From a virus, in UHGV virus genome UHGV-0116392: a stretch of DNA of 16,211 bases; one strand, 5' to 3'. The notes under the pieces are model-generated. The model had not been told where the DNA came from. It searched no databases and was given only the letters and a program-made list of their open reading frames with translations. The position numbers and the translations under genes were made by a program. Every line of letters starts with the position of its first letter. The stretch's first letter is position 1. Positions 138 to 11,412 of the stretch are shown piece by piece.

Positions 138-490
138 TACGCCTCCGATGTAACAGTCGTTATTCCATAGAGAGTGTCGATTTCAGCGGAAAACATGACA
201 CGTCGGGTCGTGGTATCCACCGTCGTATTGAAAGAGAGGATTGATTTAACGCCCTGCGTTTCCAGAATGCGTTTTCTGATCGCTAGGTTGTAAGTTTCCG
301 GTTTTTGCCTGCCCAGCACAGACTGGAACCACGGAGTCCCTTCGGTAGTGTCGAGAAACCATTGCCCATACCACAATTCGAATCGCGTTTTCACAGCCTG
401 TGCCACGGCCTCAGGCGAGTTAATCAGCCAGGTGTCATCACCGCTGCCAAAGGTGTAATCGCCATCGGCGTCTTCACGTCTGTATCGCAT
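137..490 (-). CDS. Small baseplate protein (gp25/W-like or DUF2634-like position), 117 aa
   Basis: ORF with ATG at 490 overlapping the stop of the spike gene. Size and placement between spike and J-like gene fit a baseplate wedge protein. No motif confirmed. Confidence 0.5.
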   Translation of the reverse strand: MRYRREDADGDYTFGSGDDTWLINSPEAVAQAVKTRFELWYGQWFLDTTEGTPWFQSVLGRQKPETYNLAIRKRILETQGVKSILSFNTTVDTTTRRVMFSAEIDTLYGITTVTSEA

Positions 491-1242
491 CAGTTTACCC
501 CGTCGGTACTGCTTCCACCGCGCTGAACACCGCCATGAGTGTGCGTATCATCGATTGGCTTGCCGTTAGCCTTAACGCTCCCCAAGAACTCAACAGCACC
601 AGTGATTTTTGAAGCCACGCCAGAAACAACAGACCCCACCATGCCTCCCATCCAGGTTAACAGGCCATGAATGGTTACTTTCTCAGAAAAATCAGCCAGA
701 GGGGCAACCACATCAAGGCCCCCCGGAGCGACAATTTTAATTTTCCTGGTATCAGGATTAAGCTCAAAATAGGTGCTGCCGTCATCACTACGCAACTGTG
801 TGGCACTGGTATTAATACCGCTAATCTTCCTTGCCTGCGACTGGGGACCGACAATACAAAACGCATCCGATAAATCATGCATTCTGTCATCGACCGGCTC
901 CTGTATCCCGCCACTCTGCCACCAGAAATCAATACAACGATCGGCAAAAATCACCAAACATTCATCACCGGCTTTAACTGGAAACGTTAGCGTACAGCCT
1001 CCGCCACGCGGGAATACCACTGGCACATCCACCAGCAATGGGTAATTTTTGGTAATGCGGTTGCCGTCGTTATCAATTTCAACGTAACGGATAGCAGGCT
1101 GTACAACCGCCGTCACCGCATCAGGAGCGAATGACTGAACAATGCCAGGCAAGGCGACACGGATCTGGTTCTTTGTTGTTTCCCGTTCAGATTTAAATGT
1201 TTCGGCAAGGTCGCCGCTGCGGGTCTGGTCAGATACTGCCAT
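490..1242 (-). CDS. Baseplate central spike protein (gpV/Mu gp45-like), 250 aa
   Basis: ATG at 1242 with GGAG upstream. The C-terminal HTHGG motif is consistent with a metal-binding spike tip. Assignment is by family resemblance and position in the baseplate cluster. Confidence 0.6.
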   Translation of the reverse strand: MAVSDQTRSGDLAETFKSERETTKNQIRVALPGIVQSFAPDAVTAVVQPAIRYVEIDNDGNRITKNYPLLVDVPVVFPRGGGCTLTFPVKAGDECLVIFADRCIDFWWQSGGIQEPVDDRMHDLSDAFCIVGPQSQARKISGINTSATQLRSDDGSTYFELNPDTRKIKIVAPGGLDVVAPLADFSEKVTIHGLLTWMGGMVGSVVSGVASKITGAVEFLGSVKANGKPIDDTHTHGGVQRGGSSTDGVN

Positions 1243-1261
1243 TTAGTAGGCTCCAGAAAGC

Positions 1262-1293
1262 AAAAAACCCGCCAAGTGGCGGGTTTGAATTTT
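1262..1293 (-). terminator. Rho-independent terminator downstream of the inserted two-gene cassette
   Basis: Plus strand reads aaaaaacccgcc-aagt-ggcgggttt. On the minus strand a perfect 6-bp GC stem (ggcggg/cccgcc, extendable with A:T pairs) is followed by TTTTTT. A-run and T-run on both sides make it potentially bidirectional. Confidence 0.7.
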
Positions 1294-1306: not shown

Positions 1307-1735
1307 TTATGCAGTTAACGAGTCATCACCAATCTTCAGTAATTGATTAACGATTGCATCGACCTCTTCCGCATCCAGAATTACACTTCTCGCGGTAATC
1401 CGGTTGATTTTCCGCTCAAGCTTGTAATCAGAATTAACACGTTGGGCATGCGTCATTTTCAGTTTAACGCCGATTTTCTTTACTGCGTTAACATCAACAT
1501 CGTTAAGTGCAGCTGCCTCACCACTACAAAAGGCCGTATAGACTCGCATGTGAACTCCACCTTTTAGTTTTTCACCATCTTGTGTAGCGGTCGGTACCAG
1601 ATTGTTGGTGATCCGTAAGGCGGAATGGTACATACCATAGTATGCTCGGCTAATAGCATTTCTCGTCCACATCTCACCGTTTAGAGCCAGGGAATGCTTA
1701 GCCAATTCAAGAAAACAGGTATGCTCAACCGACAT
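1307..1735 (-). CDS. Hypothetical protein, 142 aa (cassette gene B; weak HEPN-like R-x6-H signature)
   Basis: ATG at 1735 overlaps the TAA of gene A (TAATG coupling). Sequence ...SRAYYGMYH... gives an R-x6-H spacing. About 43-45% GC by eye, lower than flanking tail genes. No family confidently recognised. Confidence 0.6.
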   Translation of the reverse strand: MSVEHTCFLELAKHSLALNGEMWTRNAISRAYYGMYHSALRITNNLVPTATQDGEKLKGGVHMRVYTAFCSGEAAALNDVDVNAVKKIGVKLKMTHAQRVNSDYKLERKINRITARSVILDAEEVDAIVNQLLKIGDDSLTA

Positions 1736-2466
1736 TAGAGTTCCCCGGCTTCAAAGCATCCGACGCATTCTGAATCCGCAAGCCCCGCAATAATAATCTC
1801 ATCAGCCAAGGCATTATTCATCTGCGAAAGAAGCACTGGATCGTCTGTTTTGACTTCAACGAACAGCGTATCAAGTTCTGACATTACATAAAAAACATGA
1901 GCGCCAGCAAGACGAGCGCGGTACTTTTCTGCAACGTTCATCATGAGCCGCCCAATAGTTTTTAGCTCCTGAGCATGATCTTTTTGGGTATGCAGATAAT
2001 TGAGCGTGTCATACCATTTGCCCATATCTTCAGGGCGCGGTACTTCCATTGCAGTTAGCATCGGCATCACCTTTTCAAGCAAATCGATATCAACCCAGTA
2101 TGCAGAAATTGTAGCAACCTCAGCCAATATCGTTGGATTAAGTGAATCAGATGCTTTCTGAATCATCACATACTGGCGAGCATGCAAACCTAAGTTACGC
2201 AGCGCAATCGTATAGTTACAAAAAGAAACTGGATCGTTAGGCGCTATTCTCAACCCCCGCTCACAGAGTGAACATCCTTCATCTATTTCACCAAGAACAA
2301 GCTTAGCTAAGCCTTCAATTGATAGCCCCTGATAACGTTCAGGTAGTTTCTTCGCTTCACGAATGATTCGATGGATTTCAAACTCACTCAGAAGGTTTTC
2401 ACCCTTAGTTAATGAAGGAGTCAGAAGATCTAACAGTTCTCCTGATTTTGGCTGCGCTAAACTCAT
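1735..2466 (-). CDS. Hypothetical protein, 243 aa (cassette gene A; two CxxC pairs)
   Basis: ATG at 2466 after a 150-bp intergenic gap. Contains CSLC near the N-terminus and CVGC at the extreme C-terminus. Lower GC than neighbours. No family recognised. Confidence 0.6.
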   Translation of the reverse strand: MSLAQPKSGELLDLLTPSLTKGENLLSEFEIHRIIREAKKLPERYQGLSIEGLAKLVLGEIDEGCSLCERGLRIAPNDPVSFCNYTIALRNLGLHARQYVMIQKASDSLNPTILAEVATISAYWVDIDLLEKVMPMLTAMEVPRPEDMGKWYDTLNYLHTQKDHAQELKTIGRLMMNVAEKYRARLAGAHVFYVMSELDTLFVEVKTDDPVLLSQMNNALADEIIIAGLADSECVGCFEAGEL

Positions 2467-2615
2467 GTTTTAGTTATTCCTGGCTTTAATGAAGTAGCAT
2501 ATCGATGGCAATCCACCATCAAAAAGTCAGTGCAGTGTAATCGCTCGTCTCAAAAAACAACAGTTTTTAGAGCACATTTTGTTGTTTTTCAGGCGTTACG
2601 AATTTCAGGTTACCT

Positions 2616-2948
2616 TCACCCAGCCACTTTTTTACAAGGGAAAGATCCTATGATTTTCGGCGCATCCATGCTGTTCTGCAGAAGCTGGACATTCAGGAAA
2701 GCTTTTCCGTTACGTTTCACAAACTCAAAGCCGTAATTGTTACCATCACGGGAAGGCATCAGGCCCATGTCCATTTTTATGTTTGAATAGTCACCATCTT
2801 TTCCCAGAAATTTTATCTTCTGTGATGTGACAGTTTCACCGTTAATAACAGTCATTCCGTCACCGGTCATCGTGTAGTTGCCGCACTGAATTGCAGCCAT
2901 CGCCGGAGCAGTAACCATCATAACTAACGCCAAACATAACCGTTTCAT
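2616..2948 (-). CDS. Small secreted/periplasmic protein, ~110 aa, with cleavable signal peptide
   Basis: ATG at 2948-2946 overlaps the TAA of the hub gene (TAATG), with AGAGGG Shine-Dalgarno upstream. N-terminus MKRLCLALVMMVTAPAMA-AIQ has a positive n-region, hydrophobic core and AxA site. The mature protein has two Cys. The six-frame track's start at 3026 is an upstream in-frame extension inside the hub gene. Confidence 0.6.
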   Translation of the reverse strand: MKRLCLALVMMVTAPAMAAIQCGNYTMTGDGMTVINGETVTSQKIKFLGKDGDYSNIKMDMGLMPSRDGNNYGFEFVKRNGKAFLNVQLLQNSMDAPKIIGSFPCKKVAG

Positions 2949-4012
2949 TAAAGCCCTCTTTCCCTCGCTGATGAGGAAACAAGATCCGCCGCGCCACGCG
3001 CTTCGCACATCATATCCATGTACCACGCCTGGCCCCTTGTATCGCCAGTGTACATAATCCCGCGCACAATATAAACGCCATCCGTTGCGATGCTGGCAGG
3101 TTGTGCTGTGGTGCCGCTGAGTGTGATATTTCCGTCCGTGTTCTGGTCGGTGCTCTGCCCACCAGCCATCGCAATATCATTGTTCGACAGCGCGGTGCGG
3201 TACACGGAAGCCTGATCCAGCTGAATAAGCCCGTTAACCCGGATGTTCGGATTAATAAGCGCGCGGACGTTTACGCCGTTACCGATAGTCTGCTGCGGCA
3301 TGCCAATAAGCCCGGTAGCGCTGTTGAGCACAATCGCTTCATGAACATATTCGTTATTCGCCACCATCTGGCGCTGACCGTCCACGAATTGCCATGTTGC
3401 GCCACATTGCCCGGCTACGTTATCCATTAGATGCCGCGTCATGCCAAAGAGTACCCGCCCCCGGGGGAATACAGTAGCAGGCATTTCAGGCGTCAGGCCT
3501 TCGGTCGCGCCTTTGGCCTCAAAGTCTTTCATCAGCGCACGGTTTACATCAGCGACCGTGTAACCGGCAGCCAGCGTCTGTGAGGTTATACTGGTGGCAA
3601 AAGCCAGATCAGTATCGGCTGCCTGAATCAGGACGTAGGAATCAACCGGGCTGTCTTTTCCTGTGACCGAGTAGCGAATTTCACCGCTGAAAATCAGTCC
3701 GTAGTTGCGGCCATCACTCTGGCCCACGTCCGCCGCATCAACCTCCCGCACGGTCCCGACATCGCTTGCCGACACCTCCGGCGCGATACCGTCGTAACCC
3801 GCAATCAGACGCACTTTCGAAAACTCCTGCCCGGTAATTCGGTTCACAGTATCTGCCGAGAGGTTATAAATTTTGATAGTCCCTACCCGGGACGCGCTGC
3901 TGATGTTGAACCAGTCGATCGTAAAGGTGACTTTGAAATCACTTAGCTCAATTCCCTGACCGTTCCCGTCCACAAGCTGCAGCTCGAAATGTCTCATCCA
4001 GTTCTGTGTCAT
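2948..4012 (-). CDS. Baseplate hub protein (gp27/gpD/XkdQ-like position), 354 aa
   Basis: ATG at 4012 with GGAG at about -10. Size and placement after the tape measure and two small genes fit a hub. Family not confirmed by motif. Confidence 0.5.
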   Translation of the reverse strand: MTQNWMRHFELQLVDGNGQGIELSDFKVTFTIDWFNISSASRVGTIKIYNLSADTVNRITGQEFSKVRLIAGYDGIAPEVSASDVGTVREVDAADVGQSDGRNYGLIFSGEIRYSVTGKDSPVDSYVLIQAADTDLAFATSITSQTLAAGYTVADVNRALMKDFEAKGATEGLTPEMPATVFPRGRVLFGMTRHLMDNVAGQCGATWQFVDGQRQMVANNEYVHEAIVLNSATGLIGMPQQTIGNGVNVRALINPNIRVNGLIQLDQASVYRTALSNNDIAMAGGQSTDQNTDGNITLSGTTAQPASIATDGVYIVRGIMYTGDTRGQAWYMDMMCEARGAADLVSSSARERGL

Positions 4013-4903: not shown

Positions 4904-6892
4904 CTAACCCACCCTCACCTGATTACTTCGCATGACCTGAGCATTTGCAGACTGTTGCCGACGTGCAACCTCATTACCGACAGCGTGCGGATCTCCGCCA
5001 CCGTAAATGTGGTAGGTATTTTGCTGGTTAACCTCTGTCACTTTGCCACTAATTCCCGCCACGGCAGCCTTATTAATCAGCTCTCGAGAATAGATATTTC
5101 TTCCATTCTCATGCTGGATAATGCTGCTCATCAATGCTGACATGGTTTGCGGATCGCTCATATTCAGGGCAGCCCGGGGATCCACTCCCAGTCGTTGCGA
5201 TACAGCCCTGATATACGCAGTTGTGTTGTTATTATCAGACGCAGGTGCCCAGGTAGAGATAATTTTCTCCACACTGTTTATTCCCCGTCCGGCGTACAGC
5301 ATTAACTGACGAGCAAGAGCCCGTAATCCATCAAAGGCAGTTTCAAATCTGGCAAATCGCCCGCCCGGGCGTTCAAGAGAAGCCCCTGCCTGACCAGCAA
5401 AATTAAGGTTTCCCGGATTGTTATTCCGTTCTCCTCGTTTCGTAGCCTGTGCATGTTGTTCCGGCTCATCATCACCAAACCAGCCGCGTACCGTCCGGCC
5501 CACACTGCGGGGATCAAATCCCCAGTGCTCTTTAATCCAGTCGGCAGTACTGTTAGCGCTGTCTGTAACCATCGGCATCGCTGACGGATTTTCGCTGCCC
5601 TGATTAAGTATCTGTTTGCCGATGCTGACGGCATCAGCCCAGCGGCCATCTTTGATAGCGTTGAGCAGGTCGGCGATCATGTTCAGCATTTTGCTGAATT
5701 CGCCCATCTGGTCGATGAAGTTGCTGAAATCCCACTTCAGGGACCATGATTTGGGGTCAATATTGAGCAGTTTCGCCAGCGCTTTCACCAGGTCGTTAAC
5801 GGTCGTTTTAAGGTCACGAACCATCTTCAGCGCGGCATCAACCTCCGGTTTCCACTTGCCCCAGTCAATCAGGCTGTCGCCGCCTTCCTTCCAGGTCTGA
5901 TAGTCCTCCCACAGGAGGGCAATCCCCGCCGCCAGCGCGGTAATGAGGCCAATCGGCGACATCCAGAACGTACTGTTCAGAATGCGCAGCGCAATCGTCA
6001 GTGCGCCAAACAGCGAGATCAACTCCCGCGTTTGCTTATCCAGCGATTGCCACCAGGTGATGAGGCCTGATGTCCCCTCAATCAGTCTGAAGAACAGCCG
6101 CCCGATAATATCCCCGAGCGCCAGAATGCCTTTTATGGCTTTCGTCAGGGTCTGCTCGATACGCGGGAAGTTGTCCAGGATATGGCGGCGCAGTGTGTCC
6201 AGCGAACCCGCAAGCCCACCCGCAAGATTAGAGCCGATTTTGTCACGGGCCATGCCTGCCATCGCGCCAAACTCACGCAGGGAGGTCATAAATTTGTTGG
6301 AGCTTCTGGCCGCCTCGTCAGCATTGAAGCCGATAGCTTTCGCCATTGCGCTGTACTGCCCGGAGAAGCCACCCACACCGCGACGCATAGCCAACAGGGT
6401 ATTTTCGTCAATGCCCAGCATCTGCGCATACTGGTTAGCACGGTAATACGGCATGTCGCTGAGCTTCTGGCCTACCCCTGTAAAAATAGCGGCCATGTCA
6501 CGCATGTTACCGCTGGCATCCCGTGTCTGTACCCCCAGACGATTCAGAAATCCCTCCGCCCCGGGATTATTACGAATAAACCGGGAGAGGTTTTCCAGAG
6601 AAGATCGCGCAGCGTCCACGCTGCCGCCAACCTGCGAAACCGCATAGCCAATAGACTGAATTCCCTGGACTGTCGCGCCGGTGCGCTGTGACGCCCAGTA
6701 AAGATTATCCAGGCCGGAGGCGATCTTAGCCGTGAAGGCCACCACGGACAGCGCCGCTCCTTCGACGGCCAGCCCCATTTTGATGACATTTGCAGTTGTA
6801 CCGGCGAGGACAGAACCGAATTTTTTCGCTCCTGCATCATCCACACTGAAGCCAAGCGAGACAAGGAAATCTTTAATAGTCTCGGCGTTCAT
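4904..6892 (-). CDS. Tail tape measure protein, ~662 aa
   Basis: Largest ORF, directly downstream of the chaperone gene. ATG at 6892 is preceded by GGAGAGAGGA; the track's start at 6913 is an upstream TTG. The protein is Ala/Gly/Leu-rich with a hydrophobic segment (LISLFGALTIALRIL...LITALAAGIALLW) and a distinct C-terminal region. Confidence 0.8.
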   Translation of the reverse strand: MNAETIKDFLVSLGFSVDDAGAKKFGSVLAGTTANVIKMGLAVEGAALSVVAFTAKIASGLDNLYWASQRTGATVQGIQSIGYAVSQVGGSVDAARSSLENLSRFIRNNPGAEGFLNRLGVQTRDASGNMRDMAAIFTGVGQKLSDMPYYRANQYAQMLGIDENTLLAMRRGVGGFSGQYSAMAKAIGFNADEAARSSNKFMTSLREFGAMAGMARDKIGSNLAGGLAGSLDTLRRHILDNFPRIEQTLTKAIKGILALGDIIGRLFFRLIEGTSGLITWWQSLDKQTRELISLFGALTIALRILNSTFWMSPIGLITALAAGIALLWEDYQTWKEGGDSLIDWGKWKPEVDAALKMVRDLKTTVNDLVKALAKLLNIDPKSWSLKWDFSNFIDQMGEFSKMLNMIADLLNAIKDGRWADAVSIGKQILNQGSENPSAMPMVTDSANSTADWIKEHWGFDPRSVGRTVRGWFGDDEPEQHAQATKRGERNNNPGNLNFAGQAGASLERPGGRFARFETAFDGLRALARQLMLYAGRGINSVEKIISTWAPASDNNNTTAYIRAVSQRLGVDPRAALNMSDPQTMSALMSSIIQHENGRNIYSRELINKAAVAGISGKVTEVNQQNTYHIYGGGDPHAVGNEVARRQQSANAQVMRSNQVRVG

Positions 6893-9125: not shown

Positions 9126-10406
9126 TTAATCTCCGAAAAAGATGACTGGTGCTTCCACCAGCGATTTAATACCGTACTCGCGCACAACCTTCCGGCGCAG
9201 GCGCACCGTCATATCGTAGCGGCGGACCCATTGCTGATTAATAAATTCAGGGAAGGGGGTCAGACCTGTGTAATCGCCAAGAGACAGCCCCAGCGCATTC
9301 AGTGCTGCATTGTTCTGCGGTACAGATATACCGTCACGAAACCGGGACGCATACACCATCCCCGCCGGACCATAAAACGAAGCCATACACTCAATCGTTT
9401 CATGCCGCCAGAGCTTAGAGCCATCATCGGTCTGTCTGGTGAATGCCGGACTGTCATCACCTGACCATCCGATACCCAGTTTGATATGCGCATCAACGGC
9501 AGCCTGTACCCATTCGGATGGAATCAGGACGCCTTCCGCTGATGCGCTGTAGTTCAGATCAAGTTCCTGTGCCACCACCACCGGATTATCGATTTTCTCG
9601 CATTCCCTGCGATACCACTCTTCATCCTTGCGAGGATCATCCCGCCAGTGGAATGTGAATACCGGTATCTTCCCGCCATGACGCTTCTGAGCGAACGGGT
9701 TAGCCATGCCGTTAACTGAACTCAGGTCGATACGGCAACGCGTCGTTTGTGACAACGCCGCATCAATCAGCAGAGGACGCTGAAGGAATGCAGCCTCATC
9801 AACCAGATAAAGCGTGGTACGGTCACCACGACCAATATTATCGCCAGCCTCGCCTTTGATAACGGCACCAGTTTCAGGAAACTCAACACGCATATATGGC
9901 GCGTGCTTCTTCTCACTCCACGAACCGCGAAACTCTACAGGTAGCGTTTCCACGAACTTGCGCGCCTTCCAGAACAATGCTTTCGGGTCACCAGTGCTGT
10001 CGACGTATTCCTCTTTACGGGAGCCAAAACCGATAACCATTTCTTTGTTGAAGAGACAAAGCGAGCATGCCAGTCCGATCGCGGTCCAACTGAGCCCCAT
10101 TTCACGGGATTTTTCGGTAATACCATTCTCCCGATTGCTCCAGCGTTCCATAATCCAGTGGATCCACTCCTCCTGCTTAGGGAAGAGTAAAAACGGAATG
10201 GTCACCGGCAGGCCATAATCAATATTACGCGGGTCCGTTGTCATGCCCCAGTCGATGATGAACTGAGCCGGATTGGTTCGGTAAAACTGTTTTAGTGCAG
10301 GCAATATTTCAGGATTCTGGCGAATGCGCTGTAGGCGTTCCATCCGCCATTCAAAAACCATCTGGTAATCAGGATGTTTAAAATCGAAGGGGAATGGTAA
10401 CGGCAT
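9126..10406 (-). CDS. Terminase large subunit, 426 aa
   Basis: Deviant P-loop KSREMGLS (lambda gpA-like KSxxxGxS pattern) around residues 95-105 and Walker [10 protein letters not shown] around residue 200, followed by a C-terminal domain of nuclease-domain size. Lies 2 bp downstream of terS. Confidence 0.8.
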
Positions 10407-10408
10407 AC

Positions 10409-10960
10409 TTAGCCCATCATTTTTCTATACGCTTCTGCAACCTGCTCCGGCGTTAAGTTGGTAATTTCTGTTCTGACTGGTCCTCCGTCAGCACCAGTCA
10501 CTTCATTTTTGACATTGTCTTTAAACGCCTGAACAGAAACATGACGCCCGAGCAACTCAAGGTTTTTAACCTTATCAGGCCATTTGATTTTCTTCAGAAG
10601 TGCGGCGCTATCTGCGGATGCCATCTCCACGACATCCATTCCTGATAACGTTGTGCGCCATACCTTAGGCCAGTCTTTAATGGGTTTTAGCTCACCGTTT
10701 TGCAGGAGAATGTCAAGCACATCCATCTGGTCGATTTCAATAAGGCGATTAAGTACATATTCTGCATTAATACCAACAAGATCATTGCGTTGCGCTTTCA
10801 GTTCGGCGATTCTTAACTTGATGTCAGGTTTTGACAGGTTTTCGGATGCGGTACGGTTGGCTGTTTTTGCGCTGTACCCCGCCCGAATAGCCGCTTGCGT
10901 GGCGTTTAAATCGATGAGGTACTCGCGACAGAACATCTCTTGCTTGTCTGTGAGTGCCAT
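10409..10960 (-). CDS. Terminase small subunit (Terminase_2/P27-type), 183 aa
   Basis: N-terminus [30 protein letters not shown] is the characteristic HTH start of this family. Immediately upstream of terL. Confidence 0.85.
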
Positions 10961-10980
10961 TTTTTCTCAAAGGTGAATTT

Positions 10981-11412
10981 ATGAGCTCATTAACGTTTAT
11001 CGGATTGTCACAGTTACTTTCTAGGAAAGGTGAGTTATTACAGCAAAATACGAATGATTTATTAGAACGTGTTAACACCGCATGGAATAACAAACGAGAC
11101 CTTAATAAGCAAATTTCCATAGAGCTAAATGATGGAGAGCTTGAGGTTTCAATTCCACAGCTACGCTTTAAGTGTTTTACAGAAAGTAAGCTTTCACTTC
11201 ACGAAGGCTCATTAATTGGGGTTATTACTTTTTACACATCGCGAGATGGAAAAAAACAGGAGTTTCATAAAATTTTTCTTGATTGGAACAATTGCATGCA
11301 TTTTGGGGCGCTTGACTCAACAGCTCCAATAGACATCGACTATACCGAAGATGTTGAGTATCTCTTTATGAACGCTCTAATCGATTCTGCTTATCGAAAT
11401 AATTTAATCTAA
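10981..11412 (+). CDS. Hypothetical protein, ~143 aa; AT-rich orphan gene divergent from terS
   Basis: The only convincing plus-strand gene. ATG at 10981 is preceded by AAGGTGA; the track's start at 10954 is an upstream GTG. GC is visibly much lower than the rest of the window. No family recognised. Confidence 0.6.
   Translation: MSSLTFIGLSQLLSRKGELLQQNTNDLLERVNTAWNNKRDLNKQISIELNDGELEVSIPQLRFKCFTESKLSLHEGSLIGVITFYTSRDGKKQEFHKIFLDWNNCMHFGALDSTAPIDIDYTEDVEYLFMNALIDSAYRNNLI

Follow-up and report, generated by a model that had tools for sequence, protein, structure and literature searches.

Why does a prophage place a gene for a small exported protein inside the operon that builds its tail? This question is raised by the viral genome UHGV-0116392, represented here by a stretch of 16,211 nucleotides (nt; hereafter the window). 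The window is a prophage of Escherichia coli that combines a late region of lambdoid type with a contractile tail like that of SEN34/Brunovirus and, between its genes for the baseplate hub and the membrane-puncturing spike, it carries on the minus strand a gene for a protein of 110 amino acids (aa) with a putative signal peptide. We conclude that this is very probably an exported accessory gene, non-structural in nature, and that the hub-spike junction is a hotspot for recombination and cargo in which the exported-protein gene comes first.

The minus-strand open reading frame (ORF) running from 2948 to 2616 translates into 110 residues (MKRLCLALVMMVTAPAMAAIQCGNYTMTGDGMTVINGETVTSQKIKFLGKDGDYSNIKMDMGLMPSRDGNNYGFEFVKRNGKAFLNVQLLQNSMDAPKIIGSFPCKKVAG), beginning with MKRLCLALVMMVTAPAMAAIQCGNY and ending with PCKKVAG. 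Its N terminus displays the three regions of a Sec signal peptide, i.e. an n region (MKR, charge +2), an h region (LCLALVMMVTA) and a c region (PAMA) with Ala at positions −3 and −1, and the cleavage site is predicted after residue 18 (Ala18), between MKRLCLALVMMVTAPAMA and the following A. As assessed by a home-made check of hydrophobicity, charge and the AXA rule, this N terminus (KD10 = 2.72) is distinct from those of the soluble proteins encoded in the window. The call is heuristic and is backed by the behaviour of the family: the same check is passed by 67 of 69 members, and the sequence of the signal peptide varies across the family yet stays hydrophobic. The lipobox motif L-[AS]-[GA]-C is absent, A-I-Q being the residues that precede C22. 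In comparisons between alleles, the proportion of nonsynonymous differences (pN) in the mature part is 0.04-0.43 vs 0.33-0.93 for synonymous ones (pS), and the two are about equal in the signal peptide. A mature part under purifying selection behind a relaxed signal peptide is the pattern of a real exported protein. Judged from its sequence, the product has every hallmark of a small soluble periplasmic protein, the signal peptide of which would be removed after Ala18.

The gene is tightly joined to the hub gene. On the coding strand the junction reads GAGGGCTTTAATG, and the hub TAA (2950..2948) and the ATG of the exported-protein gene (2948..2946) overlap by 1 nt (TAATG). The ORF finder proposed a longer, GTG-initiated ORF (2616..3026), which was rejected as the gene because every relative aligns from the ATG. 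With a G + C content (GC) of 0.441, the exported-protein gene is poorer in GC than the hub (0.549) and spike (0.507) genes, and the low-GC tract extends beyond it through the next two genes, to ~1300. An earlier interpretation of the window that was made from the letters alone (the sequence-only reading) had described a protein of ~110 aa with a Sec signal peptide and two cysteines, AT-richer than its neighbours and coupled to the hub through TAATG. All of this is borne out, the two cysteines being C22 and C105 of the mature part (a third, C5, lies in the signal peptide).

The sole library match of the protein is to PHROG 3443 ("hypothetical/secreted protein", unknown function), with E = 2.4e-53 for residues 3-109 against positions 6-114 of a 115-position profile. 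A protein search identified 413-491 homologous clusters at 90% identity, and 63 representatives at 50% identity were found among 1.84 billion proteins. Apart from a few orphan copies, the family is restricted to Enterobacterales prophages, and the organism-named sources are all Enterobacterales (Escherichia, Salmonella, Klebsiella, Raoultella, Enterobacter, Citrobacter, Yersinia, Serratia, Photorhabdus, Edwardsiella, and Pantoea). A protein identical to that of the window is already public as "hypothetical protein" on 84 contigs, and a 113-aa syntenic homologue (WP_001214055.1, locus L003; 56% identity over 117 aa) is listed in RefSeq as "STY1065/STY2022 family phage-derived protein". The copy of NCBIfam that was searched holds no hidden Markov model for the STY1065/STY2022 family, no literature on this family was found, and the gene is not discussed in the SEN34 paper or the urinary coliphage paper. 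The homologue in SEN34, gp20 (locus L001, 6001-6342), has been annotated from an internal start (6109), by which the signal peptide is lost; the full ORF starts 2 nt past the hub stop codon. C22, L85, and C105 stay invariant even in alignments reaching down to 23% identity, and the most conserved stretch includes the segment RDGNNYG, which lies between predicted strands.

Association with the hub gene is a lasting property of the family. In all 20 phage records that carry it, the family lies directly downstream of a hub that is at least 50% identical to that of the window. A distant homologue (39% identity) again follows the hub in a tail of the same type, as does a 292-aa fusion (P0136) composed of a lipobox-like N-terminal domain and the family domain, and a homologue with 23-30% identity sits between the plug and hub genes. 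Providencia phage PSTCR3 (L095, 1963-2436) and Burkholderia phage BgManors32 (L096, 3493-3951, minus strand), which have distant versions of the tail, also show beside the hub a gene that is unrelated to the family and whose product has a signal peptide-like N terminus; in BgManors32 this gene lies on the opposite strand.

Such hub adjacency, which holds for most family members including the 39%-identical one, and the position of the gene inside the baseplate block, coupled to the hub, are what could be expected of a tail structural or assembly protein whose hydrophobic N terminus is not cleaved. We find this hardly credible, for the N terminus evolves like a signal peptide, there are two invariant cysteines, and the gene is missing from some closely similar tails. 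Among 80 IMG/VR loci with hubs at least 97% identical to that of the window, the family directly follows the hub in 76, with 54-100% identity to the window copy. In the other four, the same position is occupied by an unrelated signal peptide-like protein of ~150 aa (yong1-type) or by a 241-aa lipobox-like protein, and such replacements were seen even together with identical tape-measure proteins; the family is missing from tails with 97-100% identical hub and tape measure. It is also absent from Hafnia phage yong1 (hub 77% identical), which has an unrelated signal-peptide protein of ~140-158 aa in that place, and in phage EKP1 the hub is followed by two other small proteins, again with signal peptide-like N termini. 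None of the replacement proteins has a Pfam match or a significant match in PHROG or NCBIfam (the EKP1 pair was not run against NCBIfam). In Acinetobacter AbTJ and Salmonella SPLA11, two distant phages that share the tail type, the annotated gene abutting the hub homologue has a product that reads like the N terminus of a spike. Because hub and spike abut in these phages, the ancestral module needs no exported-protein gene.

No homology of the exported protein to any virion structural family was found in Pfam, PHROG, or the PDB sequences. The sequence-only reading had held that the protein is not a conserved structural part, and this agrees with the lack of virion homology, the absence from distant relatives, the replacement in near-identical tails, and the location in a low-GC slot that ends at a terminator; presence in 76 of 80 near-identical tail clusters and absence from distant ones is an accessory pattern. 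Its proposal of a lysogenic-conversion or superinfection-exclusion moron stands as regards an exported, accessory, and non-structural product, with conversion and exclusion as candidate functions. Its other proposal, that of a periplasm-acting accessory used at infection, fails because a Sec-exported product of the producing cell is not packaged into virions and cannot act from the incoming particle.

What kind of place does the gene occupy? In the survey of 80 loci, the exported protein falls into five allele clusters at 90% identity (26, 25, 12, 8, and 4 loci), and the hub, plug, Dit-like, and sheath-initiator genes form one cluster each. Comparison of the window with locus L035 reveals where alleles are exchanged. 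The hub genes are identical until ~35 nt before the stop codon (~2981), the sequences then diverge up to about codon 83 of the exported-protein gene (~2700), and identity resumes at FLNVQLLQ and continues through the 3' end of the gene, the spacer, and the following 243-aa gene (coordinates estimated from alignment columns). The final 2-4 residues, after PCKK, vary among loci with different downstream cargo. Since the breakpoints lie inside the gene, its conserved 3' third serves as the anchor for recombination on the left of the cargo slot, and the 5' two-thirds can be exchanged as well.

Downstream of the exported-protein gene there are 0-3 cargo genes, many of them in two-gene cassettes (190-276 aa plus 123-142 aa) with at least 8 length variants. 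In the window, the 142-aa cargo protein is HEPN-like (RAYYGMYH), with a weak PADLOC match to HEPN_IX (E = 0.009), and the second proteins of the cassettes that were read carry RAYYxxYH or a close variant. From these sequences, the polymorphic HEPN-like pairs look like a candidate defence or toxin-antitoxin family. An alternative cargo (L054, 3832-4569) encodes a 245-aa protein with a signal peptide-like N terminus that matches PHROG 8545, "superinfection exclusion Sie-like" (E = 2e-15), and Pfam PF12869 (E = 2.7e-16). The slot is closed by a strong intrinsic terminator located inside the tail operon, immediately before the ribosome-binding site of the spike gene. In 58 of the 80 related loci, the slot region contains a hairpin that matches the CCCGCC-loop-GGCGGG core of this terminator; in the six positive loci that were inspected, a T-run and the ribosome-binding site of the spike come after it. 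These six include L021, where the exported-protein gene is the sole cargo and the terminator comes directly after it; in the window it comes after two further cargo genes, at 1286..1265. Rfam gave only sub-threshold matches of leader or terminator type at 1259-1337. This terminator is moron-like and implies that there is transcription to be stopped while the phage is a prophage. Late transcription that is antiterminated would presumably continue past it, and the window carries a Q-like gene.

Does the protein then serve only the lytic cycle? A late helper exported just before lysis would act in the producing cell, e.g. by protecting against lysis from without or late superinfection or by conditioning the envelope for release, and would have no role in the lysogen. 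This would suit the coupling or close packing with the hub (the start lies −13 to +3 nt from the hub stop codon in 69/69 loci in which it could be placed), the possession of a Shine-Dalgarno sequence and no promoter, and the hub adjacency that is kept down to 39% identity. We nevertheless regard it as unlikely. The virulent Rosemountvirus relative SPLA11 has no such gene in this position, a complete holin, endolysin, and Rz cassette is already present in the window, and the terminator behind a gene that is the sole cargo, as in L021, suggests transcription that has to be stopped, as for prophage-expressed cargo.

The structure of the protein was predicted. The model of the full precursor, with its signal peptide, was mediocre (predicted local distance difference test score (pLDDT) 77) and its matches were uninformative. 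The mature part, modelled with a deeper alignment, gave a confident all-β structure (pLDDT 92.5, predicted template modelling score 0.81), an eight-stranded up-and-down barrel. It resembles calycin/avidin-like barrels, the best matches being avidins with 7-14% sequence identity, and the BFVD library of viral structures contains no match with E < 0.4. A disulfide between Cys22 and Cys105, which we infer from the invariance of the pair, would tie the first and last strands together. Avidins depend on tryptophans for biotin binding, and the mature protein reads as devoid of tryptophan. Because such barrels are generic and the mature protein is Trp-free, function cannot be read from the fold.

A small periplasmic β-barrel with an invariant cysteine pair could also be a periplasmic inhibitor of peptidoglycan hydrolases similar in function to PliC/MliC, PhiA, Ivy, or T4 Spackle, in which case the RDGNNYG loop, part of the most conserved stretch of the family, would insert into the active site of the lytic domain of an incoming tail or of a host or phage lytic enzyme. 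Possible targets are at hand. The C-terminal ~135 of the 669 residues of the tape measure (about 5039-5440, minus strand) resemble endolysin 7q47 (E = 8e-14) and also Gp29 of 9vvp (E = 1e-20), a domain that Pfam does not recognise, and related tails have an SLT domain in place of the endolysin-like part. The lack of allelic covariation speaks against such a pairing. The same conserved half of the exported protein occurs with endolysin-like and SLT-type tape measures, the adjusted mutual information (AMI) with the tape-measure allele is 0.06, and loci with an identical tape measure carry unrelated signal peptide- or lipobox-like proteins instead. In addition, the MliC family of Pfam (PF09864) gives no match at E ≤ 0.1 and, to our knowledge, the signature motifs of MliC/PliC are not visible in the exported protein. 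The inhibitor is, in our judgement, improbable.

The explanation that we favour as a whole, an exported protein of an accessory slot with a role in conflict or exclusion, stands in our estimate at a little less than an even chance, and its more specific form, a periplasmic function of the superinfection-exclusion type, is held more tentatively. The gene would share the transcript of the late tail operon, its translation being coupled to that of the hub, and the mature protein would bind a periplasm-exposed target and thereby exclude superinfecting phages. Candidates for this target are a component at the tail tip of the incoming phage and a factor of the host envelope on which such phages rely. 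Within the mature protein, specificity would reside in the exchangeable N-terminal two-thirds, with the conserved C-terminal third as the scaffold; at the DNA level, that third doubles as the recombination anchor for swapping downstream cargo. Exclusion is favoured because alleles are balanced, the replacements are unrelated and exported-like, the neighbours are defence-like, and the gene is absent from the one virulent relative examined, all the carriers found being prophage-type phages. Circumstantial hints of a conflict role come from the Sie-like 245-aa protein and the HEPN-like pairs among the slot neighbours, and from the unrelated signal peptide-like genes beside the hub in PSTCR3 and BgManors32.

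Several results weigh against a role in exclusion. Neither an experiment nor homology was found that links the PHROG 3443 family to exclusion. Searches of Pfam, NCBIfam, and PADLOC with the exported protein returned nothing, a sequence profile search of the PDB gave no match at E ≤ 10, and searches for lysozyme-inhibitor, Bor/Lom-like, and superinfection-exclusion families were all negative, no match to Sie, Bor, or Lom being present within the whole Pfam and PHROG libraries. The modelled fold, clear as a class, is a generic barrel with no specific functional match. No covariation of the allele was detected with the tape measure, the spike (AMI 0.05), the fibre (0.03), or other tail genes, using a method that recovered the positive control gpJ/gpI with an AMI of 0.87, and thus no partner is identified. 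A consensus scan of the coding strand found no σ70-like promoter upstream of the gene, the best candidate by eye being an 8/12 match in the 3' end of the hub gene. Classical exclusion needs expression in lysogens, so that the failure to find an upstream promoter counts against it. Finally, it is unusual, as the sequence-only reading had remarked, for a moron to be coupled so tightly to a structural gene of the late operon, and the narrow spacing in every locus where the start could be placed, with no promoter of its own detected, strengthens that remark.

The orphan copies are a further difficulty. Three homologues (L091, 6001-6327; L093, 6001-6339; L094, 2651-2995) are single genes with no phage context, located between cls/yciY and yciI/tonB on a chromosome, at another chromosomal site, and on a Rep3/NikA plasmid contig. 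They could point to a role in host physiology instead, i.e. to a lysogenic-conversion factor for host fitness in which the calycin-type barrel binds a small molecule or an envelope component, with no conflict between phages. Apart from these distant members in housekeeping neighbourhoods or on a Rep3 plasmid contig, such a factor would fit a fold class that includes many ligand binders and the intactness of the gene in a head-deleted, defective prophage. We give it little credence, given that the mature protein is Trp-free and only 7-14% identical to avidins, that no lysogen promoter was found, and that five balanced alleles in one tail background, together with unrelated replacements, fit conflict better than a fixed metabolic role. 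An immunity role in type VI secretion, considered for one distant homologue ~1.4 kb upstream of an orphan Hcp gene, was dropped; of the other copies outside tails, the two on chromosomes and the one on a Rep3 plasmid contig are without a type VI secretion context.

Returning to exclusion, a broader and rather unlikely extension is that, in temperate myophages with this simple baseplate, the exported proteins beside the hub form a class, defined by position, of periplasmic factors directed against phages. This class would comprise the β-barrel family, the yong1-type and lipoprotein-like proteins, and the Providencia and Burkholderia proteins, and its members would intercept the incoming contractile tail tip after its passage through the outer membrane. 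Which phages are excluded would depend on the exchangeable N-terminal half-barrel, and frequency-dependent selection would keep the alleles balanced.

Table 1. Coordinates of the exported-protein gene, its parts, and the surrounding slot. Positions refer to the window, except in the last row, which refers to the loci named.
Feature	Position	Strand	Remarks
Exported-protein gene	2616..2948 (stop codon included)	−	110-aa precursor; member of PHROG 3443; homologues and purifying selection
Sec/signal peptidase I signal peptide MKRLCLALVMMVTAPAMA, codons 1-18	2895..2948	−	Predicted cleavage after AMA (n/h/c regions, AXA rule)
Mature 92-aa domain	2619..2894	−	Predicted eight-stranded antiparallel β-barrel; invariant C22 and C105
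Shine-Dalgarno GAGGG	2954..2958	−	5 nt before the ATG, within the end of the hub gene; read from sequence
Baseplate hub gene, 354 aa	2948..4012	−	phrog_196 baseplate hub, E = 6e-89; Pfam E217_GP41 below threshold
Exchangeable allele segment	~2700..2981	−	Last ~11 hub codons, ribosome-binding site, signal peptide, and residues to ~83; DNA alignment with L035
AT-rich spacer, GC 0.38	2467..2615	−	Separates the exported-protein gene from the downstream cargo pair
Variable cargo pair, overlapping 243-aa and 142-aa genes	1307..2466	−	PHROG 22649 and 5176, neither with a known function; many other pairs or single genes take their place in related loci
Intrinsic terminator closing the slot	1259..1286	−	9-bp GC-rich stem and T6; ΔG −15.7 kcal/mol, z −5.2
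Gene for the membrane-puncturing spike, flanking the slot on the right	490..1242	−	Pfam N-terminal spike domain, E = 3.6e-43, and Apex motif
Replacements of the family after the hub	L004 4556-5032; L055 5446-5907; L079 7068-7793; L005 4532-4774 and 4799-5122 (EKP1)		

Along the minus strand, the window reads Q, holin, endolysin, and Rz, followed by sheath (DUF3383), tube, chaperone, and tape measure, then Dit-like, plug, and hub, and, beyond the exported-protein gene, the 243-aa and 142-aa pair, the terminator, the spike, and the sheath initiator. In the spacer behind the exported-protein gene, a consensus scan found no promoter, and the hairpin that follows the stop codon lacks significance (z −0.66). 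A 2.9-kb stretch comprising the slot together with the flanking sequence has matches in 336 of 5,426 complete E. coli genomes.

Elsewhere in the window, a 426-aa ORF (9126-10406, minus strand) is a fusion with its junction near 9470. The N-terminal part lies in DNA that is annotated as TerL in related E. coli genomes, residues 311-424 match the neck terminator family PF23961, and the portal, capsid, and other head genes expected between the two halves are missing. Of 408 complete E. coli genomes with a match to one half or the other, not one has the two contiguous. This copy of the prophage looks head-deleted (defective, possibly making tails only), or else the window spans an assembly join. 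On the opposite strand, a 152-aa ORF (10954-11412, plus strand) lies between the small terminase gene and a Rha-like gene.

How does the gene compare with known systems? Like the classical tail-operon morons (lom of λ, gp15 of HK97, and cor of φ80 and N15), it is inserted between otherwise adjacent tail genes, deviates in base composition, encodes an envelope-directed product, is found in temperate phages only, and belongs to an insertion that ends at a terminator. Unlike them, it has no promoter of its own that could be found, its start overlaps a structural stop codon, its predicted product is soluble and periplasmic rather than an outer- or inner-membrane protein or lipoprotein, and neither its sequence nor its family is related to Lom, Bor, Cor, or gp15, as Pfam and PHROG gave no such match. 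With T4 Spackle and P1 Sim it shares the status of a small exported phage protein that, in the mode proposed here, could act on incoming phage in the periplasm, although no homology was detected and the exported protein is modelled as all-β. T4 Spackle is α-helical. The inhibitors MliC/PliC and PhiA differ in that there is no match to the MliC family of Pfam and that avidin-like barrels match the modelled structure better, whereas avidin and streptavidin share the eight-stranded calycin barrel and differ in sequence (7-14% identity), in the lack of Trp in the phage protein, and in its location in a phage tail operon.

The slot itself resembles the cargo and defence hotspots of P2-like phages in its fixed position between conserved genes and its many cassettes, which include HEPN-like pairs and a Sie-like protein. 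It differs in that the exported protein is nearly always first, the conserved 3' end of its gene being the left recombination anchor, and the hub-spike location in SEN34-like tails is new. The sequence of the protein (as a hypothetical protein) and its kind, an envelope-directed accessory gene in a tail operon, are already known. New are the fold of the family, its status as a polymorphic anchor in the hub-spike hotspot, and the recurrence of unrelated exported-like occupants.

Even without a function, these findings correct the annotation, with respect to the start of SEN34 gp20 and in that the gene is accessory and not part of the baseplate. If exclusion is indeed its role, the family would be an unstudied group of periplasmic anti-phage proteins with members in E. 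coli, Salmonella, and Klebsiella, and allele-specific exclusion, if shown, would raise its interest further. The hub-spike junction of SEN34-like prophages would then be a new and easily recognised cargo and defence hotspot to mine, with the HEPN-like pairs among the candidates.

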